In this document: positions 4,830-38,629 of the stretch, piece by piece | How positions within the stretch are numbered: the stretch's first letter is position 1 | Layout of the letters: each line of letters starts with the position of its first letter | Source: an uncultured Gemmatimonadales bacterium | GTDB lineage: Bacteria > Gemmatimonadota > Gemmatimonadetes > Longimicrobiales > RSA9 | NCBI GenBank assembly: GCA_963741945.1 | Contig: CAVUKA010000005.1 | Span: forward strand, 576,001 to 640,000 | Length of the DNA: 64,000 bases | Direction of reading: 5' to 3' | Made by a program: the position numbers and the translations under genes | The notes under the pieces: model-generated | The model's database searches: none | Seen by the model: only the letters and a program-made list of their open reading frames with translations | What the model was told of the DNA's origin: nothing

Positions 4830-4835
4830 TGCCGG

Positions 4836-7822: not shown

Positions 7823-8277
7823 CCTTCCCCTGCAACAAGCGGCCGTGCCCACGTGAAGGCGTTGTTAAGAACAAAGTTGAGGACCAGCATGGCTGCGATC
7901 GCAGTGGCATTGGCCAACATCAGCCAACCCATGCCCCACCACGCGGTGAGTGTCGTGACAGTTGCGACAGTTCCGGTGAGCGTGAGCAAGGATATGGACT
8001 GAAACCGAAGGAGCCGCTGAGCCCAGCCGTTCCGGGTAGTGCGCCCTCTGAACGTGAACGTATCGTTGCCGACGAAATTGAACAGGATCGCAGTCTCCGT
8101 GGCGGTGGCGGAACTCAGAATGACCGGCCATCCGACAGCGTGCACGCAGACCCAGAGAACGGCCATGTTGACAGTTGTCCCAGTCCCGCCCACCAGAGCA
8201 TAGCGAACGAAAGTCCGAAGATCCTCAAAGCTGTGAGGGAGCCGGTATTTGGTCGGGGTATTACACGCGACAGTCAT
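7819..8277 (-). CDS. GtrA-family lipid-linked sugar flippase-like protein
   Basis: 152 aa, 4 TM; FVRYALVGGTGT, NFVGNDTFTF, NFVLNNAFTW. Confidence 0.88.
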   Translation of the reverse strand: MTVACNTPTKYRLPHSFEDLRTFVRYALVGGTGTTVNMAVLWVCVHAVGWPVILSSATATETAILFNFVGNDTFTFRGRTTRNGWAQRLLRFQSISLLTLTGTVATVTTLTAWWGMGWLMLANATAIAAMLVLNFVLNNAFTWARPLVAGEG

Positions 8278-18045: not shown

Positions 18046-19781
18046 GTGTCGCTGCGAGCGAAAATCCTGCTCCTCTTCTTCGGCTTCGCCCTGCTGCCGG
18101 TGCTGCTGCTCGGCGCGGGCGACTACCTGCAGTCGGTGGACGCGCTGCGCGCGGTCATCGAGGCGCGCGGCGAAGCGCTGGCCACGCAGGCCGCCGGGGA
18201 GCTGGAGCGGGAGTACGCGGACGCCACGTCCAGCCTCCGCTCCGTGGCGGAGCGCGTGGCGCTCCAGCAGGCCCGCGGATCCGCGATCGCGCTCGACGGG
18301 CCGCCGCCCGCCCCGTTCTCCTCCATCATCCTCGAGCTGCCCGGCCGCAAGGCGCGCGTCCTCTTCGAGGGCGGCGGTTCGGTGGGCATCGACAGCGGCT
18401 GTCCGGCGGAGCCGCGGGAGCTGCGGATCGCGGTGGCGCTGCCGGGCGCCGCGGCCGGCGCCCGGCTGGAGGGTGTTGTCGCCATGTCCAGGCTCCTCGG
18501 CGGGGCGCCCTCGCTGGCCGCGCACGTGGGGCAGCTGGGATTCAGCCGCCTGGTCGAGCGCAGCTCGGGACGGCCGCTGTACACGTCCGACTGCGCGCGG
18601 GTGGAGGGGCTGCCGTGGCCGCCGTTCGTGCCGGGCGCCCTCGATCCGCTGGTGGAGCGGCGCACGGTGGCGTACCATCGGCCGGGCGAGGGGACGTGGC
18701 GCGCTTCCGCCGCGGTGGCGCCCGGTCCCGGCTGGCTCGTCACCGTGCATTCCAGCGACGAGGAGTTCGTCGGCCCCTTCCGCCAGAGCCGCATGTTCTA
18801 CATCGGGCTCGCGCTCCTGGTCCTGTCCGCCGCCGCGCTCTTCTTTTCCGTCCTGGCCCAGAACTCGTTCCGCTCCCTCGGCGCCCTGGCGGCCGCGGCC
18901 GATGCCGTCCGCCTCGGCAACCTGAACCCGTGGCTCCCGCCCCCGGGGGACGACGAGGTCGGCCGGCTCACGCTGGCCTTCCGCAAGATGATGGACCGGC
19001 TCGATGACTCGATCCGGCAGAGCGAGCTGAACCAGAAGATGGCGGCCGTGGGGGAGCTGGCCTCGTACCTGTCGCACGAGATCCGCAACCCGCTCAGCTC
19101 GATCCGCCTCTCGCTCCAGAGCCTCCGCCGCTCCCTCGACCGCGGCCGCCTCCCCGAAGACGCGCCCCGCATCCTCGAGATCGCGCTCAGCGAGGTGAAC
19201 CGCCTCGATGGCGTGGTGCGCACGGTCCTCGAGATGGGGCGCCCGGCCGGCCGCGGACGCGCGGGCGCCTGCTCGGTCCACGACAATCTTGGCGAAGCGC
19301 TCCAGGTGCTGGGGCCCAAGATGACCGCCCGCGGCGTCGACGTTCAGCTCGCCCGCGGCGCCGAGCCCGACCGCGTCTTCTGCGATCCCGAGTCGCTCCG
19401 GGGCGTCTGGATCAACCTGCTGGTGAACGCGCTGGACGCGCTCCAGGACCGGCCGGAGCCGCGCGTCCGCATCAGCACGTGGACCGATTCCGGGAACGGA
19501 GAGGTCGTGGTCCGGATGGCCGACAACGGCCCCGGCGTTCCCCCAGGCCTCGCCCGCTCCATCTTCGAGCCGTTCTTCACCACCAAGCCGCGCGGCAACG
19601 GCATCGGCCTCTCCATGGCCGTTCGCGTCCTGCAGCGCTTCGGCGGCGGCATCGCCTGCGAGCCCGTCGCCGCCGGCACGGGCGCGGCGTTCGTCATCCG
19701 CCTCCAGCTCGCCGCCTCCGATGCCCCGGCCGCCGAGGGCGCCACGACCGAAGAAACCCCTGTACTCGCGGGAGCCCGTTG

Positions 19782-19782
<1 letters not shown>
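18046..19782 (+). CDS. Sensor histidine kinase (2 TM, periplasmic domain, HAMP, HisKA, HATPase)
   Basis: DEVGRL HAMP, SHEIRNPL H-box, NLLVNA, DNGPG, FEPFFTTK, GNGIGL. Confidence 0.95.
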
Positions 19783-21157
<1,375 letters not shown>

Positions 21158-21161
<4 letters not shown>

Positions 21162-22954
21162 CACCCCGCTCTCCCGAACGCGCGCTGCTGCGCCGGCCAC
21201 CTGCGTGGCCATGGATGGTCACGACCGCCGGGATACTGATGACTGCCGCGGCGGCTCGCGGGCGCCGCTGGCCCGACCTCCTTCGGGGGCAGCTCTCCGA
21301 CCCCGACGGGTACATGCGCCTCGTCCGAGTGCGTGAGCTTGTCCGGTCTCCGCTGAGCTGGTATCACGCCGAGATCTGGCGGAGCAACGTGCCGTTCGGC
21401 GAAGCCATGCACTGGACGCGCCCCCTGGACGCGCTGCTCGCTCTCGTGGCGCTTCCCCTCGAGCCGGTGATCGGCGCCAGCGCCGTTCTGGTTGCGGGTC
21501 TGGTGGTGCCGCCGCTCCTGCTTCTGGCTAGCTGCGTGGCGGCTGCATGGATGGTACGGCCGCTCGTCCGCGACCTCCATCCCGCCATGACCGCGCTCTT
21601 CGTCCTCGGTCAGCCGCTGGTCGTGAGCTATGGCCTCCCCGGGCGCGCCGACCATCACCTCCTCATCCTTCTCCTGGCCGCGCTGGTGCTCGGCGCCGCG
21701 GTCCGCATCGCCGAGGGGCGGAACGCCATCGAGGCGGCGCGGTTCGGCGGGATCGCGGCCGCCCTGGGAATCTGGGTGAGCACCGAGGCGCTGTTCGCCT
21801 ACGGAATCGCCACCGTGCTGCTCGGACTGCCGTGGCTGACGGAATCGCGGGAGAGCCACTGGGCTCGCGTCAACGCCAGATTCCATGGATGGGCCGCGCT
21901 GGGGCTGGCGGCCGCCATCCTCCTGGAGCGTCCCTACACTCAGTGGCTGACCCTCAGTCTCGATCGGATCAGCGCGGTCCATCTCATCCTTGCCATGGGC
22001 CTTGTCCTCTTCTGGGCATTCGCCTCCGGCGTTCGGGCCCGGGGCGTTCGGCGCCGCGCGGCCCTCGCCGCAATGGGAGCGGCCATGCTCCTCACGACCC
22101 TCAGCGCCATGGCACCCGGTTTCGCGGCCGGCCCCTTCGCCCGCGTCGATCCGGGACTCCGCACACTATGGCTGAGCCACGTCCAGGAGTTCCTGCCGGT
22201 GCCGTGGAGTCCCGGGAGGGCGCTGGCCTATTTCGGCGCACCGCTCACGGCAATGGTCGGGTTGCCGCTGCTACTCCGGCCGGGCAGCGGGGGCAGGCGT
22301 GGAGTGGCCGTGCTGGCGTTCCCGCTCCTGCTCGCCTCCGTGATGGGCGTTGCACAGGTGCGATGGCTGCTGTACGCGCAGCTGATCGCGGCGGCCCTGC
22401 TGGCGGTGTACGTGTCCCGGGTCCGCGAACGGCTATCCGAAAGCCTTCCGCACCGCCTCCTGAAGGCGCTGGTGGTTGTCATAGCGGCCACCGCCTGGCT
22501 TGTGGGCGGGGGGGTGATCGACGCCTTCATCCACCCGGCTCCGCGCGTAGCCGACAGCGTTCCCGCATGCGGCGAGCGGGATGTGATCTCCGCCCTCCAG
22601 GGTGCTGGATTCAGCGGGCCACAGGTGGTGGCCGCCCACGTAGACTTCGGGCCCGCGATCCTGTTCCGAACCCGTGATGCCGTGGTCGCCGCCCCGTACC
22701 ACCGCAATTCGGGCACCCTCGCCGTCTACCAGGCGCTCAACGCGGTGGATCCGGAGCGCGCCAGAACCATCCTCCGGGCACGCCGGGTCGACCTCGTGGT
22801 CGTGTGCCCGGGCCACGACGAACCGTTCTTCCAAAAGCGGGTCCAGGGCGCGGAGACGCTTTTCGGGCATCTCGCCGCCGGGGATCCGCCTCCATGGCTG
22901 GCACCTCTCCCCCGTGGTTCCGGGGGTGCGGTCCTTTACCAGGTCCGGGAATGA
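21158..22954 (+). CDS. AglB/STT3-like GT-C membrane glycosyltransferase, copy 1
   Basis: TTG overlaps the regulator stop; DPDGYMR, GRADHH, HVQE, HVDFG...APYHRN, VDLVVV. Confidence 0.7.
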
Positions 22955-24935
22955 CGTCCAGCCGAACGCGCGCGGGGTTGACCTGGGCGTCCGCGGGCGC
23001 GGTCATGGTGCTGTGGGTGGTGGCGGCATCATACCAGCGATGGTCCCAGCTCTCGGCCGGATGGCTCCCCGGAACGGACGCGTACATGCGCCTCTTGCGC
23101 GTCCAGCGTCTGCTCGGGGGCGCCGGCTGGTTCGATGGGTCGATTCCGCGCAGCAACGTTCCCTACGGCGAGATGCTGCACTGGACCCGTCCCCTGGACG
23201 TGCTCATCGTCGCGGTCGCAATGGTCGTCAAGCCCTTCTCCCACGATCCACTGCTCACCACCGCTCTCGTCCTCCCGCCCGCGCTGATGATCGCGGCGGC
23301 CGTTGCGGCCGCCTGGATGGTCAGGCCCCTGTTGCAGGAGCTGTCGGCTCCGCTCGCGGCGATCTTATTCGTGGGCCAGCCCGTGGTCTTCGCCTACGGA
23401 TTCCCCGGTCGTGCCGATCACCATCACCTCATCCTGCTGGCTGCTCTCATTCTTTTCGGCGCCATGGTACGGCTGCTCATCCGCCCCAGCTACGACATGG
23501 CTGTCGTCGCCGGGCTGGCAGCCGGATTCGGAATGTGGGTCAGCGTCGAAGCGCTGCTCGCGTACGCCATCGTGACGGTGGTACTCGGACTTGCCTGGCT
23601 GAGGGGCGACACGCGGGCGTGGGCGCGGTCAACCTGCGCTTTCACGCCGCCGCCGCGCTGGTCGTGGCGGTCTCGATCATCGTGGAGCGGCCTCCGGCCC
23701 AATGGCTGGATGTCTTCCTGGACCGCGTCAGCGTGGTTCATCTCCTCGTCTGCCTCGGCCTCGTGGCCTTCTGGGCGCTCGTGGCCCCGCGGGTCGCGGA
23801 CGCTGGCGCGAGATCGAGGATGGCTGCGGCGGCGCTGTCCGGGGGTGCCATAGCCGCCCTCATTGCCGCTGTCGCACCGGCCTTCTTCCTCGGGCCGTAC
23901 GCGAGCCTCGATCCGGCCCTGGTGGCTGTCTGGCTCCCCGGCATCAGCGAAGTCCACCCGGAAACGCTGACGCCGCGCCGGATCCTGCTGCACCTGGGCG
24001 CACCCGCCGTGGCTCTCGCCGCAACCGCCGCGGCAGCGCTGCGGACGGCGAGCCACCGGCCCGCGCGAGCGGCGCTCCTGGTCCCCCTTTCGGTCACCCT
24101 GGTCCTCGGGATCTTTCAGTTCCGCTGGCTCCTGTATGCCGAAGCACTCGGGGCCGCGTTGCTGGCCGTCGCCATCTCCGACGCCTCCGTCACCCTGCGC
24201 GGCTCCCCTCTCCAGCCCTGGGTCCGTAGCACGCTGGCGGTGGCGGGCACGTTCGGATGGGTGGTGGTCGGAAGCCTGCCGTGGCCAACGGCCAACTCCG
24301 CACCCGAGTTCGCATCCACATCCGGCTGCTCCGATCAGCAGGCCGTCGCCGCGCTCGATGGCCTCGGCCCGAGCACCATCGCCACGTACGTCGATCTCGG
24401 GCCGGTGATCCTCTATCATACATCGCACGCGGTGCTGGCCGCCCCCTACCTCCACAATTCCGGCAACCGGGTGGTCATCGGGACACTGGACGCTCCGCTC
24501 GCCGAGGCCGACCCGGCCGAGCTCCGGGAGCGCGGCGTGAATTTGGTGCTGGTGTGCCCGGCCGGAAGGGACGCATACCTCGTGGCGGAGCGCGACGGGC
24601 GGGAGACCCTGTACGGCGCCCTCGTCCGGGGCCGCCATCCCGCCTGGCTCACACCCGTAGGAGATCCGGTTGAAAGTGCACCGGTTCGCCTCTACCGTCT
24701 GACGGGGAGCGCCGTCCCTGTTGCGCACCGCGGCTCTCGCGTGTCTCGCGCCGGAACAGAGTGGCCCGACGCCGCATCCGCCGCGAGGGCGAACAGTGGC
24801 GTATCCACGCGAATTCCGGCCGGTCGACGGCGTGCCAGAGGCGAGGAACGGCCCATGCCCTTTCGACGGGCATTTCGAGTCCACCCGGGCAACCCATGGC
24901 TGATCGCATCGTGGAAATCGGACACCCTCTCGTAA
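22951..24935 (+). CDS. AglB/STT3-like GT-C glycosyltransferase, copy 2 (frameshift near 23628, probably assembly error)
   Basis: GTDAYMR and GRADHH in one frame; GISE and YVDLG...APYLHN in another; one added G restores WARVNLRFH (copy 1: WARVNARFH). Confidence 0.68.
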
Positions 24936-25669
24936 GCGTCATCCTCCCGGCGCGCGACGAAGCGGGCACCATCGCCGAGGTGGTGCGCCGGGTCGCGGCT
25001 TCCGTGGAGCGACGGGGCTGGAGCTACGAGATCGTGCTCGGAGACTCCGCGTCGTCGGATGACACCGTCGCCCGTGCCCTGGAAGCCGACCCCCGCCTGC
25101 GGGTCGTGCGCGCCGAACGCCCCGGAAAGGGATTCGCCCTCACACGGGCGTTCCTGCACGCACGCGGCCAGATCCTTGCCTTCATGGACAGCGACCTCGA
25201 CCTCGCCCCGGAAGACCTTCCCGCCCTCATCGACGCCGTTCTCGCCGGCGCCGCCTGCGCCGCCGGCGCCAAGACCGGCGCCGCCCTGGCGTCACGACCA
25301 TTCTTCCGTCGCATCGCGAGCAGGGCTGTGAACGTGGCCGCCCGCTTGGCGCTGCGCAGCGGCATCAGCGATCATCAGACCGGAATGAAGGCGTTCGATG
25401 GGGCGGCGCTCCGGGCCGTCCTCCCCGAAGTCATGGAAGCCGGGTGGCTCTGGGACACCGAAGTCCTATGGCGCCTCGGCCAGAGGGGTTCGGCCGTGGT
25501 CCAGGTTCCCGTGGGCCTCTCGGGAGCGCGGGACGGCGCCTTCCGGAGCTGGCCGGACAGGATCACAGGGCTCGCGCAGGTCTTGTCGCTGTACGCACGC
25601 CTCTCCCGCGAGCCGGCACGGAACCCCGCGCATGCCGATGCGGTAGCGTCGGGCCGATCCCGCAGGTAG
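24896..25669 (+). CDS. GT2 polyprenol-phosphate glycosyltransferase
   Basis: VSVILPARDE, DSASSDDT, GKGFA, DSDL (DxD), DHQTGMKAF, WDTEVL. Confidence 0.88.
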   Translation: MADRIVEIGHPLVSVILPARDEAGTIAEVVRRVAASVERRGWSYEIVLGDSASSDDTVARALEADPRLRVVRAERPGKGFALTRAFLHARGQILAFMDSDLDLAPEDLPALIDAVLAGAACAAGAKTGAALASRPFFRRIASRAVNVAARLALRSGISDHQTGMKAFDGAALRAVLPEVMEAGWLWDTEVLWRLGQRGSAVVQVPVGLSGARDGAFRSWPDRITGLAQVLSLYARLSREPARNPAHADAVASGRSRR

Positions 25670-25671: not shown

Positions 25672-27852
25672 ATGCCGCCCCGGGCGGACCGTTCGGACTC
25701 GCGTCCCGCAGGTGCCGTCCCGTCTTCGCGCCCGGCACACGGGTCGTTGATCGGCATTTCCCTCCTCTTCGCCCTCGTTGCGGTGGCGTACGGCACCGGA
25801 GTCCGGCCACTTCTGCACCCCGGACCTCCAGTGTTCGGCGATCTCGGCGGCCATATGGTGCCGATCCGTGAGGGAGTGGAAGCGCTCCGCCAGGGTCACC
25901 TCCGGGGATGGTCCTACAGCTGGTTCGGCGGATTCCCCCGATTCTACTTCTATTTCCCGCTGCCCTCCATCCTCGTGGCGGCGCTGTCGATGGTGCTGGG
26001 GCTCGGCCGGGCCGCGATGCTGGGCGTGCTCGTCGGGCCGCTGCTCCTGCCGCTCGCGGCCGCATCCCTGGTTACCGCATCGGGCGGCACACGGCGAGGC
26101 GCGATCCTGGTCGCAGCGGGATCGGCGGTCTTCCTCCTCTCCCGCTCGCTCGGGCTGGACGGGGGAACGCTCGAATCGGCCATCGTCGGTGAGTTCTCGT
26201 ACGGCATCGCCATGCCTCTCGCGCTCTTCTACCTGGCGTCGCTCCCCGAGCTGCTGCGCGGACGCCGCCTCACCCGGTTCGCGCTCTCGGCCGTGCTGCT
26301 CGCGCTCACGGCCCTTTCGCACGTCCTCGTGACCGCCGTCGCCATCGTGGCTTCCCTAGCCCTGCTCCGGCGCCGGCGGGACCTGATGACCGCGGCCGCC
26401 ACCTGGGTCTTCGCCTTCCTCCTCACCGCCTGGTGGAGCGTGCCTTTCCTGTGGTTCGCCGGCGAGATGGGGGATCTGGCCTGGAAACCGTTGTCGCCCG
26501 CGCAGCTTTCTGCCGCGTTGATCGAAGGAATCCCCCTCGGGGTCCTGGGCGTTCTCGCGTTCACGTGGCGAAGCCCGGCCCTTGGTGAACGGTTCTACCG
26601 CCTCGCAGCCGTGTTCGCGGTCCTGGCCCTCGTCCCTCTCCTGGTCCCTCACACCCCCTTCTACTCCGGGCGGCTCCTCCCCTTCGGGATGTGGGCAGCG
26701 TCCGCGCTCGCCGCTGTCGCCGCATGGCAGTGTCTCCAGGCTCTCGCGGCTCGCCGCCACCTCGTCCGCACGGGGATCGGGCTCCTGGCATTGGCGGCCG
26801 CCCTCGTCGTTGCGGTCCTCCGTCCCCCCCCACGCGGGCTCGCCGAAGCCAACTTCGGCGGCATGCGGGCGGCCGTCGACTACCGCGACTGGCTGTCCCT
26901 GCAACAGCGTGTCCAGCGGCTCCCCGCGGGAGCGGTTGCGGAGGCTTCGCTCTTCGAGCGCGACGCGGCGCGCCCGCGCTTCATCTCCGATGGCGGGCTT
27001 CTGCAACTGGAGCGGCTCACCGGCCACCGGACGGTCGGGGGGACGTGGCGGGAATCCAGCCCCAGAGGTTCATACGAGTTTCGCGCGCGCGGACACCTCC
27101 GCGCGGACACCTCCTCCATGACCACCGGGTTCCCGGCGCGCAGTCCGGATCGCGGCCTCGGGGTCCGGCAGGCCCGCCTGCTCGGGGCCCGCTTCCTGTT
27201 CGTCTCCGGATCCACCACCGCGCTCGATACCATCTCCTGGCCCAGTACCCGAGAGATCGCCCGGGACTCCACCTGGCGGTTGTTCGAGATCGCCGATGCG
27301 GCCATCGCGCGCACGCTCCGCCGCTTCACGCCCACCCCTGCAGACTCGTTCGCCCTGGCAGCCGCCCGCTGGTTCGAGGACGGGGGTCGGAGTGCTCTCC
27401 CCGTCCGGATCGACGCCGCCGAAGCGCCGACCACGGGGGGGCTGCCGGAGCCCGCGCGAATCGACGAGTCCGCCATCACCATGAGCCCGGAGGAAATCCT
27501 GATCCCGGGTGCGGTGCCCGGCCAGCCCCTGCTGGTTCGGCTGTCCTTCTTCCCGAACTGGAAGCTCGCAACGCCGGGACGCGGGCCCTACCGCGCCGCA
27601 CCCAACGACATGCTGATCATCCCCCGCTCCGAGACCATCCGCCTGGTCTGGCGCCCCGGCTGGCCCGAACGCGCCGGCCTTGCCGCGAGTGTCGGGTCTG
27701 CTCTCGTCCTGCTCCTCCTCCTCGGCACGGCCCTGGCCCGCCGTCGCCGCCGCCCACCCTCGCCGTCCTCCTCCCCGCTCCGCCCCCATGGAACGCTCGC
27801 CGCGGGCTCCCCCCGTCACGCGGTCGAAGACCCTGAGGAACTGTGCCTGTGA
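25672..27852 (+). CDS. GT-C membrane protein of the 'PTPS-related' family, copy 1
   Basis: GDLGGH, GWSYSWFGGFPRFYFYFPLP, GEFSY, LSH, AWWSVPF; C-terminal LSFFPNW. Confidence 0.75.
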   Translation: MPPRADRSDSRPAGAVPSSRPAHGSLIGISLLFALVAVAYGTGVRPLLHPGPPVFGDLGGHMVPIREGVEALRQGHLRGWSYSWFGGFPRFYFYFPLPSILVAALSMVLGLGRAAMLGVLVGPLLLPLAAASLVTASGGTRRGAILVAAGSAVFLLSRSLGLDGGTLESAIVGEFSYGIAMPLALFYLASLPELLRGRRLTRFALSAVLLALTALSHVLVTAVAIVASLALLRRRRDLMTAAATWVFAFLLTAWWSVPFLWFAGEMGDLAWKPLSPAQLSAALIEGIPLGVLGVLAFTWRSPALGERFYRLAAVFAVLALVPLLVPHTPFYSGRLLPFGMWAASALAAVAAWQCLQALAARRHLVRTGIGLLALAAALVVAVLRPPPRGLAEANFGGMRAAVDYRDWLSLQQRVQRLPAGAVAEASLFERDAARPRFISDGGLLQLERLTGHRTVGGTWRESSPRGSYEFRARGHLRADTSSMTTGFPARSPDRGLGVRQARLLGARFLFVSGSTTALDTISWPSTREIARDSTWRLFEIADAAIARTLRRFTPTPADSFALAAARWFEDGGRSALPVRIDAAEAPTTGGLPEPARIDESAITMSPEEILIPGAVPGQPLLVRLSFFPNWKLATPGRGPYRAAPNDMLIIPRSETIRLVWRPGWPERAGLAASVGSALVLLLLLGTALARRRRRPPSPSSSPLRPHGTLAAGSPRHAVEDPEELCL

Positions 27853-29919
27853 GCCGGAACACCGCGTGGATCGCCGCTGCGCTCGCTCCGCTGCCGCGGC
27901 GATCCTCTACGGTATCGGCACGCTCCCCCTCCTCCACCCTGAGACTCCCGTCCTCGGCGACCTCGGCGGGCACATGGCCCCGATCCGGGAGTCCATCGAG
28001 TCGCTGCGCCGCGGCGGGCTGCGGGGCTGGTCCTACTCCTGGTTCGGTGGATACCCGCGATTCTACTTCTATTTCCCGCTTCCCACCCTTGCCATCGCCG
28101 GGCTGGCCAGCGTCCTGCCACTCGCCGTAGCGGTGATGCTGGTGGTGCTGGCCGGGCCGTTCCTCACGCCCCTGGCCGCGGGGGCGCTGGTCGTGGCCAC
28201 GGGGGGCACGAGCACCGGCGCGGTGGTCGTGGCCACGGGATCGGCGTTCTTCCTCCTGTCGCATGCTCTCGGCCTGGCGGGCGGAACGCTGGAGGCGGCG
28301 GTCGTGGGCGAATTCTCCTACGGGCTCGCTTTCCCGCTCGGGCTTCTGTACCTCGCCTCGCTGCCGCCACTGTTCCGGCGCCGGACCGCGTCGGCGTTCG
28401 CGCTTTCGTCTCTCCTCCTGGCCGGGACGGCGCTGTCCCATGTCCTCGTTACGGGCGTCGTCGTCCTGGCCTCGACGGTGCTTGCCCGGAAGCGCGACGG
28501 GTGGTGGCTGATCGGGAGCTGGGTCGCTGCGTTCTGCGTTTCCGCGTGGTGGACGCTCCCGTTCCTCTGGTATCGCGGCGAGATGAGCTCGCTCCACTGG
28601 GGTCCGCTACCCGCACCACAGGTCGATGCGCTTCTGTACGAGGGAGTGCCGGCGGCGGTGCTGGCGGTATTGGCGTTCGCCTGGCGCGGCCCGCACGTGG
28701 GGCGGGGGTTCTATCGCGTAGCAGGCGTGTTCATCGCGGCTTCGATGATCCCCCTGGTGGTTCCCGATTCCCCGATCTACCGGGCCCGCCTCATGCCCTT
28801 CGCTTTCCTGGCGATCAGCGCGCTGGCCGTACTGGCGGTCTTGCAGTCGGTCGAGGCCATGGCTGCGCGACGGCATCGAGGCCGCGCCGCCGTGGGCGTC
28901 CTCGGGCTGGGCGCCCTTCTGGGCCTGGTTGCCCTGAGAGACACGCCGCGCCGTGCGGCAGAAGTGATATTCGGCGGTACGGCCTCCGCCGCGGACACCA
29001 CATCGTGGCGGGCGCTTCTGGAGGAGCTGGACCGCCTGCCGCCCGGGGCCGTGCTGACGGCGGCGCGTTTCGAGCCGGACGGTGGCGGCGAGCGCACGGC
29101 GCGCCTCCTCGGCGATGGCGGATTCCGGCACCTCGCCGGATGGACGGGTCGGCGTATCATCGGCGGGCTGTGGCAGGAATCCGGCCGCAGCAGCCCGTAC
29201 GTCACCCGTGCGCGCGCCAACCTCGCGGGGGGTGGAACCACGCTGGCTGCCGCCGGCGACGAAGGAGTCCCGGATGCGGCGCTGGGGGTCCGTCAGGCGC
29301 GCCTCCTCGGGGCGCGGTTCATCGTGCTGGCCGGCGACCCGCGATTCCTCGCCCGCGCTATTCTCCCGGGCACACTGGAGTTGGCCCGCGACTCGATCTG
29401 GCGCCTGTACGAGATCCACGATGCGGCCGTCGCGCTCGGTCCGGGCCTCCTGCGACCGGTCCCCAGTGACTCTCTCCCCCTCGCCGCAGCCGCCTGGTTC
29501 CGGTCCGGCGGCCGTGAACCGCTCCCCGTGTCCGCTCCCGGCAGCACGGTGCCGGCGGCCGCGAGCGGAGCTCCCGTCCGGGTTCCGGAATCGGCCGTGC
29601 GCCTCCTGCCGGGAGAGATCAGGGTGACGGGGCGCACCCCGGTGTCCCGATGGTGCTCCGGCTGTCGTACTTCCCGAACTGGCGCCTGGCGTCGCCGGGT
29701 GTCGGCCCGTTCCGGGCCGCGCCAAGCCATATCCTCGTGGTCCCCGCCTCCCGTGAGGTCCGCCTGGTCTGGCGCCCCGGCACGGCCGAGACGATCGGCA
29801 CGCTCACGAGCATGATCGCCGCGGCGCTGCTCCTGGCGGCTCTCTCGATCCAGATGATGCGCCGATCCGGTCCGGACTCCACCCCCTTCCCGATCGTTCC
29901 CAGGCGTGTCGCATCGTGA
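27849..29919 (+). CDS. GT-C membrane protein of the 'PTPS-related' family, copy 2 (apparent frameshifts near 27886 and 29640)
   Basis: Same motifs as copy 1; GTG 27849 overlaps the copy 1 stop; C-terminal LSYFPNW lies in a shifted frame after a C-run. Confidence 0.72.
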
Positions 29920-30176: not shown

Positions 30177-30368
30177 ATGAAGGACCTGTGGAACAAGTTC
30201 CTGGCGGACGAGTCCGGCCAGGGCCTCGTGGAGTACGTGCTCATCATCGCGCTCGTGGCCATCGGTCTCGTGCTGGTGCTGACCGTCTTCCGCAACGCCA
30301 TCGGCAAGATCTTCGACACGGTCTCCGAGACGCTGAACACCGCGCCGAACAACGCCTACGGCACCTGA
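30177..30368 (+). CDS. flp: Flp family type IVb/c major pilin
   Basis: Strong RBS GAGGAGG; ESG|QGLVEY Flp motif followed by a hydrophobic helix; 63 aa. Confidence 0.96.
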   Translation: MKDLWNKFLADESGQGLVEYVLIIALVAIGLVLVLTVFRNAIGKIFDTVSETLNTAPNNAYGT

Positions 30369-30461: not shown

Positions 30462-30995
30462 ATGTTCTCGACACTCCTAGCGATACCCGTTACTGTTGTC
30501 CTGATGCTCGGCGCCCTCACGGACGTCCGGGCTCGACGGGTGCCCAACGCCCTCGTCCTCGCGGGTCTCCCCCTCGCCCTGCTGGCCAGTGCCGGCGCCG
30601 GTGGGGTGGCGAGCATCCCGGGGGCGCTGCTGGGCGGGGTCATCGCGTTCGCGCTGGGCTTCGCCGCTTTCGGCATCGGCGCCATCGGCGGCGGGGATGC
30701 CAAGTTCCTGGTGGTCGGAGCGCTGGCCGTGGGCTGGAGCGGGCTGGTCCCGTACCTCCTGGCCTTCGGAGCGCTGGGTGGCGTGGTTGCGATTGCGGAG
30801 ATCGTTCGCAGGCGCGCGGGGATCGAGGCCACGGTCATGACGCTCGACCTCGCGAAGCACGCCGCCACGCTGGGCGGCAGCGGTCATCGCGCCCGGCTGG
30901 GCGATGAAGGGCGACTGACGGTTCCGTACGCCGTGGCCGTGGCGGGAGCCGCGGCTCTTACTCTCTTCACCCCCTACGCGCAATGGCTCCATTGA
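30462..30995 (+). CDS. cpaA: Prepilin peptidase (A24, TadV/CpaA)
   Basis: TDVRARRVPN, GGGDAKF, VPYAVA. Confidence 0.92.
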   Translation: MFSTLLAIPVTVVLMLGALTDVRARRVPNALVLAGLPLALLASAGAGGVASIPGALLGGVIAFALGFAAFGIGAIGGGDAKFLVVGALAVGWSGLVPYLLAFGALGGVVAIAEIVRRRAGIEATVMTLDLAKHAATLGGSGHRARLGDEGRLTVPYAVAVAGAAALTLFTPYAQWLH

Positions 30996-31462
30996 TCAGG
31001 TCGCTGAAGCGGCGGGCTGCGCCGCAGCTGAAGGGGAGACGTCCCGGTCAGGCGGTGGTGGAGTTCGCGCTGATCGCGCCGATCCTGCTGCTCATCGTCA
31101 TGGGGATGATCGACTTCGCCCGCGCCTGGAGCGCGGCCCACGTCATCGCCGACGCGGCGAGGGAAGGGGCCCGCTGGTCCGCCGTGGCCAACAACTCCAC
31201 GCCGGACTCGGTCCTGCTACACGTGGGCCAGGCGCTTCAGAACGGGCGGCTGGACGCCAGCGGCCTGAGCCTCGGCTGCGGCACGCCGCCGTGCCTGGAC
31301 GTGGACGACAGCGGCGGCGGCGGCGGCGGGGCCACGGGGCAGCCGAGCACGGTGTATCTCGAGTACCCCTACCGGTTCAACCTGGTGGGGCCATTCCTCC
31401 GCTGGACCACGGGCCAGGGCACGATCACGCTGAAGAGCCGCATCGTGATGCGGAACGAATAG
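30983..31462 (+). CDS. tadE: TadE-like pseudopilin
   Basis: GQAVVEFALIAP...AAREGAR; C-terminal MRNE. Confidence 0.9.
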   Translation: MAPLIRSLKRRAAPQLKGRRPGQAVVEFALIAPILLLIVMGMIDFARAWSAAHVIADAAREGARWSAVANNSTPDSVLLHVGQALQNGRLDASGLSLGCGTPPCLDVDDSGGGGGGATGQPSTVYLEYPYRFNLVGPFLRWTTGQGTITLKSRIVMRNE

Positions 31463-31475
31463 GAGAAGGACCCTC

Positions 31476-32282
31476 ATGAAGCAACGACGCGTCATCGTCA
31501 TCCTCCTGCTCGCGCTGGCTGCGGCCGCGGTGGCCGGGTTCTCGACGCTCCGTTACCTGTCCACCCGCCCCGCCACGTCGGTGGCGGTGCGCCCGGACCG
31601 CACCGCCCAGGTGGTGGTGGCCGCGCGGCCGCTGCCGGTGGGCGCGCTTCTCACACGGGAAGACCTGAACGTGATCGAGTGGCCGGCCAGCACGGTGCCG
31701 GACAACTACGTAGCGGTTCCGGCCGATGCGGTGGGCCGGGGGCTCATGAGCCCCGTCCACATGAACGAGCCGATCCTGGCCAGCGACCTGGCCGAGAAGG
31801 GGAGCGGCGCGGGGCTGCCGATCACGATCCCGGAGGGGAAGCGTGCGCTCAGCATCCGCGTCAACGAAGTGGTTTCGGTGGCCGGGTTCGTGATCCCGTA
31901 CACGCGGGTGGACGTGCTGCTGAGCCTGGATCAGGGCGGGGAGCCGCGCACGCAGATCATCCTCCAGGACATGACCGTCCTCGCCGCCGGGCAGGTGTCC
32001 GCCCGTGACGAGGAGGGCAAGCCGATGAGCTACTCCGTGGTCACGCTGCTGGTCACGCCGCAGGAGGCCGAGAAGCTCACGCTGGCGAGCCAGCAGGGGC
32101 AGCTCCAGCTGGCGCTGCGCAACATGATCGACGTGGCGGAAGTCAGCACGGACGGGATCCGCAAGAGCGCGCTCATGACGGGCCCCACGCGGCGCACGCA
32201 GACGGGGCGCGTGGTCCCGCGGCCTGCCGCGCCATCGGTGGAGCTGTACCGCGGCGGCGCGCGCTCGCTGCAGCGATTCTGA
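31476..32282 (+). CDS. cpaB: Flp pilus assembly protein CpaB/RcpC
   Basis: SAF domain VVVAARPL, GKRALSI, VAGFVIP..RVDV, VTLLVTP, LQLALRN. Confidence 0.93.
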   Translation: MKQRRVIVILLLALAAAAVAGFSTLRYLSTRPATSVAVRPDRTAQVVVAARPLPVGALLTREDLNVIEWPASTVPDNYVAVPADAVGRGLMSPVHMNEPILASDLAEKGSGAGLPITIPEGKRALSIRVNEVVSVAGFVIPYTRVDVLLSLDQGGEPRTQIILQDMTVLAAGQVSARDEEGKPMSYSVVTLLVTPQEAEKLTLASQQGQLQLALRNMIDVAEVSTDGIRKSALMTGPTRRTQTGRVVPRPAAPSVELYRGGARSLQRF

Positions 32283-32334
32283 TCCGTTGCGGACTGGCGG
32301 ATCTTGCATGAACACCAGGGAAAGGGCGCATGAC

Positions 32335-33703
32335 ATGAGCTACGAGCATGGGGGTGAAGGCGCCTCCGTGGGGCCGCGCTGGCTGATGGCGGTCGTGATG
32401 GTGGTGGGGCTGGCGTGGGCCAGCGGGGCAGCCGCGCAGCGGATCATGTCGGAGCCCGGCCAGGTGATCACGCTCGCGAAGGGGGGCTCGGCGCTGCTCA
32501 CGCAGCCGCAGCCGCTCAAGCGGGTGCTGGTGGGTGATCCTTCCATTGCCGACTACGCCCTGGTGTCTCCAGGCGAGCTGGTGGTGAACGCGCTCGCCGT
32601 GGGGTCCACCAGCCTGTTCGTCTGGGAGCAGGACGGCGGCGTCCGCATGTACACCATTGCCGTCAGTCCCGACGTGGGCGCGCTCCAGCGCCAGATGGAC
32701 CAGCTCTTCCCGCAGGCGGACATCCGCATCACCGCCAGCGGCCAGGCGGTGGTGGTCAGCGGCACCGTCCGCGATCCGCGCATCGCGCGCCGCGCCATGG
32801 AGATCCTCCAGAGTGGCGGCGCCGAAGTGATCAACAACCTGGTGGCGCCCTCCGCGCAGCAGGTGCTGCTGCACGTGCGCTTCGCGGAAGTGGACCGCAG
32901 CATCCTGCACAACCTGTCCAGCGACCTGCGCGCGCTCAACCCGCACGAGTTCGGGAACGTGGAGAAAGTGGTGGGGTCGTCGCTGCAGACGCTGTCCGAG
33001 GGGATCGTCCAGCTGCTGCTCCTCGGCGACAACGGCACCGAGCTCGACTGGTTCCTGCGCGCGCTGCGCACGCAGGGCTACTTCAAGAGCCTGGCCGAGC
33101 CGAACCTGGTGGCCATCGAGGGGCAGGAGGCCACGTTCCTGGCGGGCGGCGAGTTCCCGTACCCGTCCGTGCAGGGCGGGCAGAACAGCCAGGTCAGCAT
33201 CCAGTGGAAGGAGTTCGGCATCCGGCTCAACTTCACTCCGCGCATCATGAACGATGGCGGGATCCGGCTCGAAGTGGCCCCGGAAGTGTCCTCCCTGGAT
33301 TTCGCCAACGGCCTGACGTTCTCCGGCTACCAGATCCCGGCGCTGAACACGCGCCGCGCGGAAACGCAGGTGGAGCTGAAGCCCGGGCAGAGCATCGCCA
33401 TTGCCGGGCCTGCTGAACAACGAGCACCAGAAGGACGTGGACCAGATCCCGATCCTGGGGCAGATCCCGATCATCGGCGCCTTCTTCAGCAACCGCTCCA
33501 GCCGCGACACGCAGACCGAGCTGCTGGTGATCGTCACGCCGTACATCGTTCAGCCCAGCGACGCGTCTCCCGCCCTCCCCACGGGCGAGCCGTCCACGTG
33601 GGAGCGCAGCAGGATATTCAACGAGACGGAGCTCCATCTCCCGATCGGCGAGCCGGCGGCCCCGCCCGCTTCCATTCCGGGGGGCGGCGGGCAGGAAGAG
33701 TAG
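32335..33703 (+). CDS. cpaC: Tad secretin CpaC/RcpA (+1 frameshift near 33407, probably assembly error)
   Basis: QVLLHVRFAEV, LAEPNL, FLAGGEFP, EFGIRL; secretin C-terminus (GLL..IPILGQIPIIGAFF..TELLVIVTP) is in the next frame. Confidence 0.9.
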
Positions 33704-33710
33704 GGGAGCC

Positions 33711-34952
33711 ATGAACAAGCACCAGGACGCGGTGGTTTCCGGACGGCGGCAGGGCGTGGCCCTGCCGATCGTCGCGGTCATGTTGATAGGGCTGCTGGCC
33801 ATCATCTCCCTGGCCGTGGACCTCGGAATGGCCTACACCGGCCGCGCCGAGGCCCAGCGCGTTGCGGACGCCGCCGCGCTGGCCGGCGCCAGCGCGTACC
33901 TGGACTTCACGCCCCCGGACGCGCAGGAAACGATCGACGCTGCGGACGCGCGGGCGCACGACTACGTGGCGCGCAACGTCATCCGCAGCGAGCACATCGA
34001 CCAGGACCAGGATGTCCAGGTGGACGTGATGCCGGAGACCCAGCGGGTCCGGGTGTGGGTCCGCCGCCGCGGCCTCGCGACCTGGTTCGCCAAGCTGTTC
34101 GGCGTCGATCAGATCGCCGTCACGGCCGAAGCCACCGCGGAAGCCATGTCCGCCGGCGCCACGAACGATTGCCTCAAGCCGTTCGTGCTCCCCGACCTGT
34201 GGGATGAGAACGACCCGAGCCAGGACACGAACGGCGACAACTGGTGGGATAACGACGAGGACTGGGATTACAATCCAAACGATCCTGAGTTCCCCGATGA
34301 ATATCAGGTCGCCCAAGCGGTCGGTGATACCGCCGCCACGGGATATGGCAGCGCATTCCGGAACGCCACGAGTGACTTCGGCGACGACTACGGCCGCCAG
34401 CTCATGATCAAGCCGGCGGACCCGAACGACCCGAAGATCGCGCGGCCGGGCATCTTCTACCCGTGGCGGATCGGCGAGTCCAGCGGCGCGAGCGATTACA
34501 AGGAGAACATCGTCACGTGCAACCCGGAGAACACGGTGATCGGGGACGGGGACATCGAAACCACGGACGACCAGTACAGCCTGGAGCCCGGGAACATGAT
34601 CGGCCCCACGTTCCAGGGCATCGGCGACCTGATCGCCCTCGATCCGACCGCGCAGTGGCAGCCCGGCCAGGGCCCCGACGGCCAGGGCGCGGTGGTGGGC
34701 TCGGCGTATTCCGACTGGCTGAACCACAGCCCGCGTGTGGTGACCATCGGGCTGGTTGACCCCGGCATGCTGAACCAGGACATCAACCCCTCGGACAAGA
34801 TCGAGTTCAACAACTTCGCCAAGGTCTTCATCGAGGCCCAGCCGAGCCGGAAGGACCCCGTGACCGCCCGGTTCCTCTACTACGTGCAGGGCTCCGGACC
34901 GTCCGGCAAGACGCAGAGCCCGCTCGTCAAGACCATTCGACTTGTCCAGTAG
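33711..34952 (+). CDS. tadG: TadG-like minor pilin/tip adhesin
   Basis: GVALPIVA...LAVDLG...AQRVADAAALAGA; acidic C-terminal domain. Confidence 0.85.
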   Translation: MNKHQDAVVSGRRQGVALPIVAVMLIGLLAIISLAVDLGMAYTGRAEAQRVADAAALAGASAYLDFTPPDAQETIDAADARAHDYVARNVIRSEHIDQDQDVQVDVMPETQRVRVWVRRRGLATWFAKLFGVDQIAVTAEATAEAMSAGATNDCLKPFVLPDLWDENDPSQDTNGDNWWDNDEDWDYNPNDPEFPDEYQVAQAVGDTAATGYGSAFRNATSDFGDDYGRQLMIKPADPNDPKIARPGIFYPWRIGESSGASDYKENIVTCNPENTVIGDGDIETTDDQYSLEPGNMIGPTFQGIGDLIALDPTAQWQPGQGPDGQGAVVGSAYSDWLNHSPRVVTIGLVDPGMLNQDINPSDKIEFNNFAKVFIEAQPSRKDPVTARFLYYVQGSGPSGKTQSPLVKTIRLVQ

Positions 34953-34961
34953 ACGGCCCAA

Positions 34962-36209
34962 ATGGATGATGCCAAGCTGAAGACCGCCGTCATATCGGGG
35001 AGCCGCGAGTTCCGGGAGACCGTGTCCCGGCTGCTCAAGGAGTTCCCCGAGATGCTGCGCGTGGTGAGCGATTTCCCGGTGCCCGCGGGCGACCTCGACA
35101 GCGAGATGCTCGAGGAGCTGCACCGGGACGATCCGGAGCTCATCATCGCGGATTTCAATGGCGACCCGGTCGCGTCGCTGCGCTACATCCGGCTGCTCTC
35201 GGATGCGCGCCCGTCGCGCCTCTTCCTCGGCGCCGGCCCGGAGCTGCCGCCCAAGCTGCTGATCGAAGCGATGCGCGCGGGCGTCTCCGAGTACCTGCCC
35301 ATGCCGGTGGAGCCGCGGCAGCTGGACGAGGCGCTGCGGCGGGTGGGCCGGAAGCTCGGACGCGGCCCGTCGGCGGGGACGAAGGAGGGCGCCCGCATCG
35401 TGGCGTTCGCGGGCGCCAAGGGCGGAACGGGCGCGACCACGGCAGCGGTGAACGCGGCCGTCCACGCGCACGCGCTGACAGGCCGTCGCACGCTGCTGCT
35501 GGACCTGGACGTGGAGTACGGGAGCGTGGGCGTGATGACCGGCGTCGCCCCGAAGTACAGCATCCGGGACCTCGTTTCCAACCTGCACCGGCTCGATGAG
35601 AGCCTGCTGGAATCGCTCATCACCGAGCACGGCTCGGGGGTGCACGTCCTGCCCGCCCCGGTCCAGTGGGACGAAGCGGAGTCCATCCGGCCCGAAGACG
35701 TGCGCACGGTGCTCCGCCTCATCCGCCACCACTACGACATGGTGGTGGTGGACGTGGCGCGCCCCAGCACCCCCCTCGCCCGGGTCGTGCTCGAGCAGGC
35801 GGACGCCATCTACCTGGTCCTGAACGCGGACCTCCCGTCGCTCCGCCACGCGAAGCGGATCATCGCCCAGCTCCAGACCGGGAACGGCCAGTCCCACGAT
35901 CGCGTGCGCGTCATCCTGAACCGCATCACCGCCGGCGGCGAGGAGGTCACGGCGGCGGACGTCGACAAGACGCTGAACGTCCCCGTCGCCTTCAGGCTGC
36001 GGCAGGACGACGCCGCCGTGCTCCGCTCCGTGAACGTGGGCGAGCCGGCGGTCTCGAACGGCTCGCGGTCGAAGTACTGCCAGGACGTGAAGGAGCTGGG
36101 CCTCGAGATCGCCCGGTCGGTGGACCCGGGCATCGAGGAACAGGGGCGCGGCCTCCTTGGCCGGCTGTCCAGGAAGATCGGTGGCAAACGCAGCGGGAGC
36201 GGCTCATGA
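34962..36209 (+). CDS. cpaE: CpaE/TadZ: receiver-like + MinD/ParA ATPase
   Basis: [37 protein letters not shown]. Confidence 0.9.
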
Positions 36210-37654
36210 GCACGGATGCGGGGGAACAGCAGGTTCGGCAGAAGCGCCCGGACGGAGGCGAGGGCCTCGAGCCGCTGGCGCCGCTCGCGCGGTCGGGCGA
36301 CGCGGGCACGCGGACCATGGAGGACGTGCGCGGGCGGATCCACCGCAAGCTGCTGGAGCGGCTGAACCTGTCCAACCTGGACGGGCTCAGCCGCGAGGAC
36401 GCGGCCGCGTCCATCAAGCCGGAGATCCAGAGCCTCCTGAGCGCCGAGGGCGTGGCGCTGAACCTGGAGGAGCGGGAGAAGCTGACGCAGCAGGTCCTGG
36501 ACGAGATTTTCGGCCTCGGCCCGCTCGAGCCGCTCATGAAGGACCCGGACGTCTCCGACATCCTGGTCAACACGCACGCCCAGGTGGTGGTGGAGAAGTA
36601 CGGCAAGCTGGAGCCCACGAACGTGCGCTTCCGCAACGATGCCCATCTCATGCAGATCATCGACCGCATCGTGTCCGCCGTGGGCCGCCGCATCGACGAT
36701 TCTTCGCCCATGGTGGACGCGCGGCTCCCGGACGGCTCGCGCGTCAACGCCATCATCCCGCCGCTGGCGCTGGACGGGCCGCACCTCTCCATCCGGAAGT
36801 TCAAGCGGGACACGCTTTCCGGTGACGACCTCCTGCGCAGCCGGAGCTTGACCGAGCCGATGCTCGAGCTGCTCCGCGCCGTGATCCAGGCGAGGCTGAA
36901 CGTCCTGATCTCCGGCGGCACGGGCGCGGGCAAGACCACGCTGCTGAACATCCTGACGTCCTACATCCCGGCGAACGAGCGGATCGTGACCATCGAGGAC
37001 TCCGCCGAGCTCCAGCTCCGCCAGCCGCACGTGGTGCGCCTGGAGACGCGGCCGGCGAACCTCGAGGGGCGGGGCGAGGTGGCGCAGCGGATGCTCCTGG
37101 TGAACGCGCTCCGCATGCGCCCCGACCGGATCATCGTGGGCGAAGTCCGAGGCGGTGAAGCGGTGGACATGCTCCAGGCCATGAACACCGGCCACGACGG
37201 CTCCATCACCACGCTGCACGCGAACACGGCCCGGGACGCGCTGAGCCGGCTGGAGACCATGATCTCCATGGCCAACCTGCGGCTGCCGGAAAAGGCCATG
37301 CGGCAGCAGGTGGCCTCGGCCATCAACGTGGTGATCCAGCTCAGCCGCCTCTCCGACGGCTCCCGCAAGGTGACCTCGGTCTCGGAGATCGTCGGCATGG
37401 AAGGCGACGTCATCACCATGCAGGACATCTTCCAGTTCGAGCGTCAGGGGATCAACGAGGAGGGCGACGTGGTGGGTCGCTTTCGCTCCACCGGGATCCG
37501 CCCGCGCTTCTCCGACCGGCTCAAGGCGCACGGCATCAACCTCGGCGAGCTGCTCTTCTCGAACACCGACGGTCCGGCGGCGCAGGAGAGCCTGCGATCG
37601 CTGCGCGCCGAAGCGGCACCGGGGCCCGGCCGCTCGCTCAAGGAGTGGTCATGA
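36206..37654 (+). CDS. cpaF: Tad pilus motor ATPase CpaF/TadA
   Basis: [53 protein letters not shown]. Confidence 0.97.
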
Positions 37655-38628: not shown

Positions 38629-38629
38629 C

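Follow-up and report, generated by a model that had tools for sequence, protein, structure and literature searches.

AglB/STT3-fold transferases with a substituted WWD motif beside a bacterial Tad locus: candidates for sequon-independent pilin glycosylation

What acceptor is recognized by a transferase that has the fold and the catalytic residues of an oligosaccharyltransferase (OST) but a replaced WWD motif? The WWD pocket is regarded as the reason why all OSTs require Asn-x-Ser/Thr, and WWD is reported to be strictly conserved in STT3 proteins (PMC10859629). The question is raised by two tandem genes in the window, i.e. the whole 64,000-nucleotide stretch of an uncultured Gemmatimonadales genome analysed here.

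The gene pair and its fold

Copy 1 (21158..22954, + strand) encodes 598 aa from a TTG at 21158, which overlaps the stop codon of the upstream response regulator, or 579 aa from an ATG at 21215; the ATG of copy 2 (22951..24935, +) in turn overlaps the stop of copy 1. Sequence identity between the two is 46-47% in the N-terminal ~220 aa and 39% in the C-terminal ~360 aa. The motifs quoted in an earlier note on this DNA, DPDGY, GRADHH, HVQE and HVDFG in copy 1 and GTDAY, GRADHH, GISE and YVDLG in copy 2, are all present in the sequence, and profile alignment and conservation among homologues place the catalytic ones beyond chance. In copy 1 (+) the relevant positions are D31 (21305), H66 (21410), DHH (21650-21658), E325 (22187), R383 (22361), the HVD at the WWD position (22637-22645) and YHRN (22697-22708); where the family has YHRN, copy 2 has YLHN. 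The C-terminal tail of copy 2 (~75 aa after 24710) is poorly conserved.

Copy 2 is not a single ORF in the assembly, being split by a shift of frame near 23622-23630. Because a single short-read contig bridging this site (n=1, depth 3, possibly from the source sample) has one extra base, the one missing from the assembly, and because the equivalent gene of a same-genus genome (G001) and that of P0007 are open there, we rejected its reading as a pseudogene; the frameshift is probably a sequencing or assembly error. We also rejected an STT3-GT2 fusion: the 902-aa ORF of G001 arises from a one-base gap that the window does not have.

By structure prediction and superposition, which agree with the earlier proposal of an STT3/AglB fold, both genes code for GT-C enzymes of the STT3/AglB fold. 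The AlphaFold model of copy 1 (pLDDT 94.7, pTM 0.94) has its best structural match in Archaeoglobus fulgidus AglB (AfAglB; Z 26.9, rmsd 3.6, 539 aligned), followed by yeast STT3 (Z 23.7), DPY19 (20.3), PglB (19.3) and ArnT (17.5), and overall structural comparison, rather than helix-by-helix pairing, recovers a 13-TM GT-C fold with a C-terminal soluble core. At the sequence level STT3 is reached by profiles only: a PDB search with a single sequence returned nothing (best E 0.15), and comparison of yeast and human STT3 with a family profile gives an alignment of ~440 columns (best E 1e-6), in which WWDYG lines up with the family's xxDxGP column and the SVSE and conserved Arg of STT3 are also paired. 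The C-terminal core likewise aligns with 3VGP in a profile search (E 1.4e-6). PF02516 (STT3) matches the N-terminal half of copy 2 (25.3 bits vs a cut-off of 24.5) and 5/36 homologues, with no match to copy 1; TIGR04154 matches copy 1 at E 8.6e-8 and 31 bits, far under its cut-off of 450. The genome contains no other STT3 match and no WWD[YFWH]G motif.

The pair belongs to an unnamed bacterial 'Mlr4739-like' family (Atlas 0.99), for which our literature search found no function in print. It is matched by 2374 clusters at E up to 1e-10, and phages gave no family match. A genome scan with a single protein as query likewise recovered no relatives, which an alignment of 11 sequences did find. In the tree, built without 17 partial ORFs, among them both fragments of copy 2, the window copies belong to the large HWTRP clade, not to the Sphingomonas-type clade. 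The RefSeq label of the Sphingomonas member, 'AcrB/AcrD/AcrF family protein', was dropped because the fold is GT-C.

The catalytic centre and the WWD position

The residues equivalent to those that bind the metal and the phosphate in AfAglB (PMC8342417) are near-invariant across 150 homologues: D31 occurs in 150, H66 in 142, D146 in 148, H147 in 150, H148 in 149, E325 in 146 and R383 in 150, with E191 joining D31, H147 and R383 as invariant in all 150. Both DxD-type metal motifs, of EL1 (D31) and EL2 (D146/H147/H148), are present, the latter in the DHH form seen in AfAglB; the lipid donors of Euryarchaeota carry a monophosphate (PMC8342417). The TIXE/SVSE-type Glu, E325, has V or I two residues before it in 139/150, the T/S position being unconserved. 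Even the spacing is similar, with 35 and 80 residues separating D31, H66 and D146 as compared to 34 and 80 for D47, H81 and D161 of AfAglB.

The family lacks the WWDYG motif of N-oligosaccharyltransferases: W occurs in 1/150 at each of the two Trp positions, which are highly variable, and D and G are found in 107/150 and 139/150. Columns 532-548, the region matched to the DK/MI motif by sequence alignment, hold no conserved K, M or I. Thus, the earlier claims of a retained catalytic centre and a lost sequon pocket both stand, with two amendments. The replacement of WWDYG is true of both Trp, its Asp still being there in both copies and in most homologues; and the loss, first seen in the tandem pair, is not specific to it but family-wide, since neither Trp is kept across the 150 homologues.

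Genomic context and the Flp pilin

Copy 1 directly follows a histidine kinase and sigma-54 response regulator (18046..21161, +); this regulatory pair also precedes flp in several relatives without the family. Scans for promoters, terminators and sigma-54 sites gave nothing above chance. Downstream of copy 2 lies a GT2 of the polyprenyl-phosphate-sugar synthase type (24893..25669, +; PF00535 E 3e-20), which likely makes a lipid-linked donor; its best NCBIfam matches, all under their cut-offs, include AglJ, ArnC and dolichyl-phosphate hexose transferase. Next come a PTPS_related/YfhO-like membrane protein (25672..27852, +; Atlas 0.99 to PF10131 clusters, with no Pfam match), which is likely a GT-C, and its YfhO-like paralogue (27779..29815, +), which probably carries an assembly frameshift at its 5' end, near 27884. 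The Flp prepilin (30177..30368, +; mature pilin 30219-30365), the only Flp match of the genome, and the Tad locus (30462..39556, +) follow, the latter comprising prepilin peptidase A24, TadE, CpaB (one match in the genome), secretin, TadG, TadZ, TadA, TadB and TadC and then DUF192. On the other strand are a GtrA flippase-like gene (PF04138 E 1e-23) and a flavoenzyme similar to the UDP-galactopyranose mutase of eukaryotes (top PDB match 4dsg, E 6e-21; both at 7819..9764, -), which likely contribute to donor supply, and a set of envelope-glycosylation genes coding for ArnT/PMT-like, PAP2, GT87, 507-aa membrane, methyltransferase and GT2 proteins (580..7852, -). The window therewith holds the GT2, GtrA and GT-C parts of a three-component set, the GT2 adjacent and the GtrA 13 kb away.

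To what extent this context recurs was gauged from 69 loci drawn from the best 80 of 215 hits, which are interdependent (21 from Kiloniellaceae/Pelagibius and 11 from Nitrospirota). A GT2 lies near the family gene in 41 of them, a GtrA in 8, and the GtrA/flavoenzyme pair beside it in 7. At least two Tad genes are found within 10 kb in 34/69, and in 27/43 of those loci that are at least 15 kb long; encoding at the pilin locus, as in TfpW, is not universal. The linked loci are spread over six phyla (Gemmatimonadota, Pseudomonadota, Nitrospirota, deltaproteobacteria, Bacillota and Planctomycetota), with the family gene situated between flp and other tad genes (L022, L029, L081) or head-to-head with flp (L085, L106, L112), and the five Tad-linked genomes checked each have a single copy. 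In an evenly drawn sample of Alphaproteobacteria, Tad genes lie within 9 kb in 3/18 family-bearing genomes (p 7e-4 to 5e-3 for an assumed background of 1-2%). Both close relatives with full-length members (n=2) have one near Tad, G001 in the same layout and G010 at ~14 kb from flp. Tad pili do not need the family, as 13/15 CpaB-positive relatives have no match to it. Nor are the Tad-linked members one clade, since 19 changes of the linkage label are needed to explain its distribution over the tree; Tad links occur in 0/10 rows of a distant clade to which Sphingomonas and Shinella members belong. Unlinked members have TadA ~2 Mb away (G225, G230), and in 6/35 genomes TadA was not found with the query used. 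Some genomes are multi-copy (seven matches in G216), and linked members do not differ from unlinked ones in their catalytic and YHRN motifs.

The predicted enzyme-Flp complex scored 0.67 as against 0.00 for the best control, the controls being unrelated proteins and not other pilins, and passes a mark reached by 116/157 solved pairs and 2/215 mismatched pairs. The pilin tail lies in the predicted catalytic cleft, contacting residues 28-31, 146, 322-325, 382-383 and 475-477, with at least 93% agreement of contacts between runs and a partner pLDDT of at least 71, although the score may reflect memory of solved OST-peptide structures. This prediction and the cross-phylum neighbourhood both back the link to Flp. 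Two arguments from acceptor sequences made in the earlier note were rejected as evidence. As it stated, mature Flp is without N-x-S/T and TadE (NNST) and TadG (NATS) bear one, but these sequons are uninformative because CpaC, TadZ, TadA, TadB and TadC have them too. The Ser/Thr/Asn-rich Flp tail is not distinctive: Ser and Thr make up a fraction of 0.226 in linked pilins (n=38) vs 0.180 in those from relatives without the family (n=15; p 0.18), and Asn 0.123 vs 0.125. N-x-S/T is present in 11/38 linked and 3/15 unlinked pilins. A fixed acceptor site is absent from the linked set, with Asn44 in 5/38 and Asn45 in 6/38, and 6/38 ending by residue 42. Flp1 of A. actinomycetemcomitans is glycosylated (PMC6182317), and no glycan density is seen on the Tad pilus of Caulobacter (PMC10710030); the literature searched yielded no enzyme glycosylating a Tad/Flp pilus.

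Proposed function, alternatives and known systems

We posit, as a somewhat probable reading, that the pair effects sequon-independent glycosylation of Flp from a polyprenyl-monophosphate sugar, which the adjacent GT2 makes and GtrA flips. Here, the inner-membrane AglB/STT3-fold transferases would move the sugar onto the periplasmic C-terminal part of Flp. The GT2 would load it, possibly as a furanose from the mutase-like flavoenzyme, onto undecaprenyl phosphate, a monophosphate donor to which DHH and the gene context point, and GtrA would then flip the lipid-linked sugar. As in AfAglB, the metal would be held by D31, D146 and H148, with E325 joining via water, and the phosphate bound by H66, H147 and R383. 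The amphipathic helix of the membrane-anchored pilin is predicted to dock on the enzyme so that residues 43-46 thread along HVQE towards D477. More speculatively, copy 2 and both YfhO-like proteins might modify other sites or extend the glycan. Asn and Ser/Thr are about equally plausible as the linkage residue. By analogy with TfpW, the benefit is likely the masking of the pilus from phages or the tuning of adhesion. With four GT-C-like genes upstream of flp, another of these could be the one attaching the sugar to the pilin.

A narrower proposal, which we regard as tentative and rather improbable, is that the family comprises sequon-independent N-glycosyltransferases in which an Asp/Glu pair would activate the Asn amide, membrane-anchored Flp would be read by its amphipathic helix and not by a +2 Ser/Thr, and a lipid-monophosphate-linked sugar, possibly a furanose, would go to Asn44/Asn45; the predicted complex places Ala46 against the WWD-position Asp. 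If true, there would be a Tad-pilus N-glycosylation system across at least six bacterial phyla.

The same three-component context could also serve a different acceptor. Such GT-C systems decorate glycans (PMC11127046), and the enzymes might place a side-chain sugar on LPS, capsule or a glycolipid, or elongate a pilin glycan started by a different GT-C, rather than linking sugar to protein themselves. The recurrent GT2 and occasional GtrA neighbours fit this, as do a Sphingomonas member head-to-head with GtrA and a methyltransferase, with Tad genes absent over 12 kb on both sides, and the other GT-C-like genes that hold the slot upstream of flp in L090, L093, L094 and L096. We nevertheless consider a glycan or lipid acceptor unlikely: the nearest folds are the protein-glycosylating AglB, STT3 and DPY19, ahead of ArnT and the ALG enzymes, the TIXE-like Glu and WWD Asp are kept, the Flp tail docks in the predicted cleft, and the family is present in Bacillota, which generally lack LPS.

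Were the acceptor a protein, it need not be Flp in particular. A broad-range, sequon-independent glycosyltransferase of envelope proteins, for which Flp is one of several substrates or not a substrate at all, with the Tad link due to a shared surface-modification island, would account for members far from Tad or in genomes where TadA was not found, for the multi-copy genomes and for the uniform motifs of linked and unlinked members. Across unrelated phyla, members repeatedly sit within tad operons or head-to-head with them, at several points of the tree and not in one clade, which makes this quite improbable. Finally, these could be ordinary N-oligosaccharyltransferases with a rebuilt pocket reading Asn-x-Ser/Thr in TadE, TadG or sequon-bearing pilins, as the frequent WWD Asp, the sequons themselves and the genome's want of any other STT3 might suggest. 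We hold this very improbable, given the loss of both Trp from a motif that STT3 proteins strictly conserve, the variability of their positions, the unconserved DK/MI region, a sequon frequency in linked pilins close to that of unlinked ones, and a window Flp with none.

Under our preferred reading, sequon-independent glycosylation of Flp, a family of thousands of bacterial proteins that has an intact AglB-type catalytic centre and no WWD pocket would show the same scaffold operating under a different acceptor rule. This would bear on how N-glycosylation evolved and on the glycoengineering of sequon-free sites. The family also offers a candidate enzyme for Tad/Flp pilus glycosylation, with a cultured single-copy host in Pelagibius litoralis DSM 21314 (L069), where the family gene, a GT2 and flp lie consecutively.

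Among known systems, AfAglB (AglB-L, PDB 3WAK/7E9S; C-terminal domains of the short paralogues, 3VGP and 3VU0), a member of CAZy family GT66, has in common with the family its whole-chain fold and, at matching spacing, the EL1 Asp, the phosphate-proximal His, DHH, the TIXE-like Glu and the Arg. The family differs in its 13% identity, the substituted WW, the unconserved DK/MI motif, a new conserved PYHRN loop where DGGK/DNNT sits, an invariant E191, a near-invariant D250 and a conserved Cys pair (C452/C531), and in being bacterial and Tad-linked. The fold is also that of eukaryotic STT3 and Campylobacter PglB (Z 19-24), but these use diphosphate-linked oligosaccharides and a strict sequon, whereas in the family WWD is missing, DHH stands in place of DNE, and the GT2/GtrA neighbours suggest a sugar carried on a monophosphate. 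DPY19, the tryptophan C-mannosyltransferase, combines an OST-like fold with another acceptor and a monophosphate-linked single sugar (PMC10154233); being eukaryotic, acting on WxxW and sharing 9% identity, it is a precedent only. TfpW of Pseudomonas aeruginosa group IV is an Emb arabinosyltransferase-like enzyme with a TPR domain that acts on a non-Tad type IV pilin, and the searched passages of its paper leave STT3/AglB unmentioned (10.1101/2020.04.19.049825). It is a functional analogue: a GT-C encoded next to pilA and supplied by a GtrA-like flippase, it glycosylates the pilin with the furanose D-Araf (10.1101/2020.04.19.049825), and the pilin glycan of this system blocks phage (10.1101/150227).

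Tandem genes with a predicted STT3/AglB fold

The two GT-C genes are co-oriented on the forward strand, copy 1 extending from a TTG at 21158 (or an ATG at 21215) to 22954 and copy 2 from 22951 to 24935. The TTG overlaps the stop of the upstream response regulator and recurs at the same position in G001, a genome of the same genus. Copy 2 changes frame near 23622-23630, which we treat as an assembly error because the single bridging short-read contig (151 bases, depth 3) carries an additional base there and the G001 frame is open across the site. The source genome comprises 4.09 Mb in 8 contigs and is 96.7% complete. In G001, copy 2 runs in frame into the GT2 gene via a one-base gap (L014:748-3453, minus strand; 902 aa); this joined ORF is probably an artefact, the gap being absent from the window.

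The earlier note had proposed AglB/STT3-like enzymes that keep the catalytic site and lose WWD; all its quoted motifs occur in the two genes and the feature is real. A profile of 36 homologues matched yeast STT3 (E 1.1e-6, ~440 columns), aligning DHH on YDNE, VqE on SVSE and xxDxG on WWDYG, and a 150-sequence profile matched a short A. fulgidus AglB C-terminal domain (E 1.4e-6). The predicted model of copy 1 (pLDDT 94.7) superposes best on AfAglB (Z 26.9, 539 residues aligned at rmsd 3.6), followed by STT3 (Z up to 23.7), DPY19 (20.3; described in PMC10154233), PglB (19.3) and ArnT (17.5); Foldseek likewise returned STT3 and AglB. We regard the fold as settled.

In AfAglB, according to PMC8342417, D47, D161 and H163 coordinate the metal and E360 contacts it via water; H81 and R426 are close to the phosphate, and the pocket for Ser/Thr consists of WWDYG and DK/MI. 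The family equivalents are kept almost throughout the homologue alignment: D31 (150/150), H66 (142/150), D146 (148/150), H147 (150/150), H148 (149/150), E325 (146/150) and R383 (150/150; copy 1 numbering). The WWD, given as strictly conserved across STT3 proteins in PMC10859629, has lost both its Trp: each occurs in 1/150 homologues, the third position being Asp in 107/150 and Asn in 18/150. A DK/MI motif is not conserved in the alignment. In place of the DGGK/DNNT loop of AglB/STT3, the family has its own loop, Y495-H496-R497-N498 (136, 142, 141 and 124 of 150; YLHN in copy 2). From the kept catalytic residues, the lost Trp and the lack of a conserved DK/MI, the enzymes are predicted to work like AglB, yet to lie outside the sequon-reading OSTs.

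Family distribution and linkage to Tad

With an E limit of 0.001, a search of cluster representatives recovered 3454 clusters, a set whose weak tail may contain true AglBs; with a limit of 1e-10 it recovered 2374. Near clusters are labelled 'Mlr4739 family' or 'hypothetical' in the Atlas. RefSeq names a Sphingomonas member (L018:11866-13635), which neighbors GtrA and a methyltransferase, 'AcrB/AcrD/AcrF family protein', a mis-annotation under which the family may be hiding. In one homologue (P0035, 759 aa) the N-terminus carries a fused GtrA domain, supporting a flippase-transferase partnership. In the source genome itself, neither a WWD[YFWH]G motif nor an STT3 match beyond the pair turned up. 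A literature search covering mostly open-access main texts returned nothing relevant on this family or on a Tad-linked STT3.

Among the best 80 of 215 relatives (69 loci; profiles built from recurring neighbors and named by Pfam), at least two Tad genes lie within 10 kb in 34/69 loci and in 27/43 long loci. By our own grouping of record titles, linkage is seen in Gemmatimonadota (3/10), Kiloniellaceae/Pelagibius (14/21), other Alphaproteobacteria (1/11), unspecified Proteobacteria (2/3), Nitrospirota (10/11), deltaproteobacteria (2/4), Bacillota (1/5), Planctomycetota (1/1) and others (0/3). Other neighbors in these 69 loci are GT2 (41), PAP2 (13), GtrA (8) and the flavoenzyme (7). For the 35 remaining loci, a copy or fragment lies 6-22 kb from tadA in four more genomes, tadA is ~2 Mb distant in two, and the one TadA query found no match in six. 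An even draw of 150 Alphaproteobacteria contained the family in 18, with Tad within 9 kb in 3/18. On a 98-row tree (quick method; 17 partial ORFs dropped) the Tad label changes 19 times, a distant 10-row clade having 0/10 labelled. Across 60 relatives of the source genome, full-length members occur in two, both near Tad, besides one weak partial match; 13/15 CpaB-bearing relatives lack the family. Three Syntrophomonadaceae loci (L075, L078, L088) have the genes for GtrA, the flavoenzyme and the STT3-like protein next to one another. In L075, A24, DUF192 and PAP2 lie nearby as well, and the one TadA query found no match in that genome.

The gene neighborhood and the slot upstream of flp

The pair is followed by GT2, two PTPS_related/YfhO-like membrane proteins without Pfam match (25672-29815), the only flp of the genome (30177-30368) and a full tad locus (30462-39556); pilin and TadA are 73% and 70% identical to named Gemmatimonadota records, from which the source genome probably belongs to this phylum. 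An additional base follows 27884 in a short-read contig, and the second PTPS_related/YfhO-like gene is probably frameshifted in the assembly only. The secretin gene (32287-33714) shows an apparent frame shift near 33400, probably another assembly error, its C-terminal part lying in ORF 33401-33703. DUF192 (39575-40021), located after tadC and seen again close to Tad or STT3-like genes at five loci (L036, L048, L075, L081, L088), is a possible Tad accessory gene.

GtrA and a mutase-like flavoenzyme lie 11-13 kb upstream of the pair. The latter (8274-9764, minus strand) matches eukaryotic UDP-galactopyranose mutase (E 6e-21) better than bacterial Glf (E 2e-8); in Bacillota and Gemmatimonadota it accompanies GtrA and the STT3-like gene. 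A 507-aa membrane protein without Pfam match (2164-3687, minus strand), whose homologues immediately precede flp in three relatives, is another candidate pilin glycosyltransferase.

Between the HK/sigma-54 regulators and flp (18046-30368 in the window), the 14 control loci from relatives (L089-L102) hold varying genes: the 507-aa protein homologue in L090, L093 and L096, Big_7 proteins in L089 and L099, and PAP2 with GT-C-like genes in L094. As other GT-C-like genes precede flp in 4/14 controls, the slot looks like a swappable glycosylation or pilus-accessory cassette.

The probable acceptor and parallels in known systems

In the reading that we consider most likely, the enzymes would transfer sugar from a lipid-monophosphate donor to the Flp pilin without need of a sequon; our confidence in this prediction is moderate. 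Modelled together, copy 1 and mature Flp score 0.67 as a complex, against 0.00 for the best control; the mark passed by 116/157 solved and 2/215 mismatched pairs is only roughly applicable here because our own alignments were used. The runs share at least 93% of contacts, with partner pLDDT of at least 71. In this model, pilin residues 27-49 contact enzyme residues 28-31, 146, 322-325, 382-383 and 475-477, placing the motif residues in one predicted cleft, as the active-site claim of the earlier note entailed. Ala46 contacts D477 and Q324; by analogy with AfAglB, our reading of this contact list is that Asn44 would be the acceptor residue, with Ala occupying the +2 position. Since solved OST-peptide structures exist, the pose may be the prediction model's memory of them.

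That the enzymes are ordinary sequon-reading OSTs is very improbable. Broad glycosylation of envelope proteins, with which the loci distant from Tad are compatible, appears improbable and also ranks behind Flp glycosylation. A glycan or lipid acceptor, though unlikely, is the foremost of these alternatives. No fixed acceptor position was found among the 38 linked pilins, and six stop by residue 42. The Ser/Thr/Asn-rich pilin tail does not discriminate as had been suggested, with S/T fractions of 0.226 in linked pilins and 0.180 in controls (p 0.18), Asn fractions of 0.123 and 0.125, and sequons in 11/38 and 3/15; the control pilins represent one family only and their loci often carry other GT-Cs.

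The function of the STT3-like pair is directly testable. The linkage made by the GT-C enzyme TfpW is reportedly to Ser/Thr. TfpW, encoded beside pilA, adds arabinose to pilin with the aid of a GtrA-like partner (10.1101/2020.04.19.049825). Glycans on pilin protect against phage (10.1101/150227), and three-component furanose systems are described (PMC11127046). For Tad pili themselves, the Caulobacter pilus is depicted without extra density (PMC10710030) and glycosylation is documented for Flp1 of A. actinomycetemcomitans (PMC6182317).
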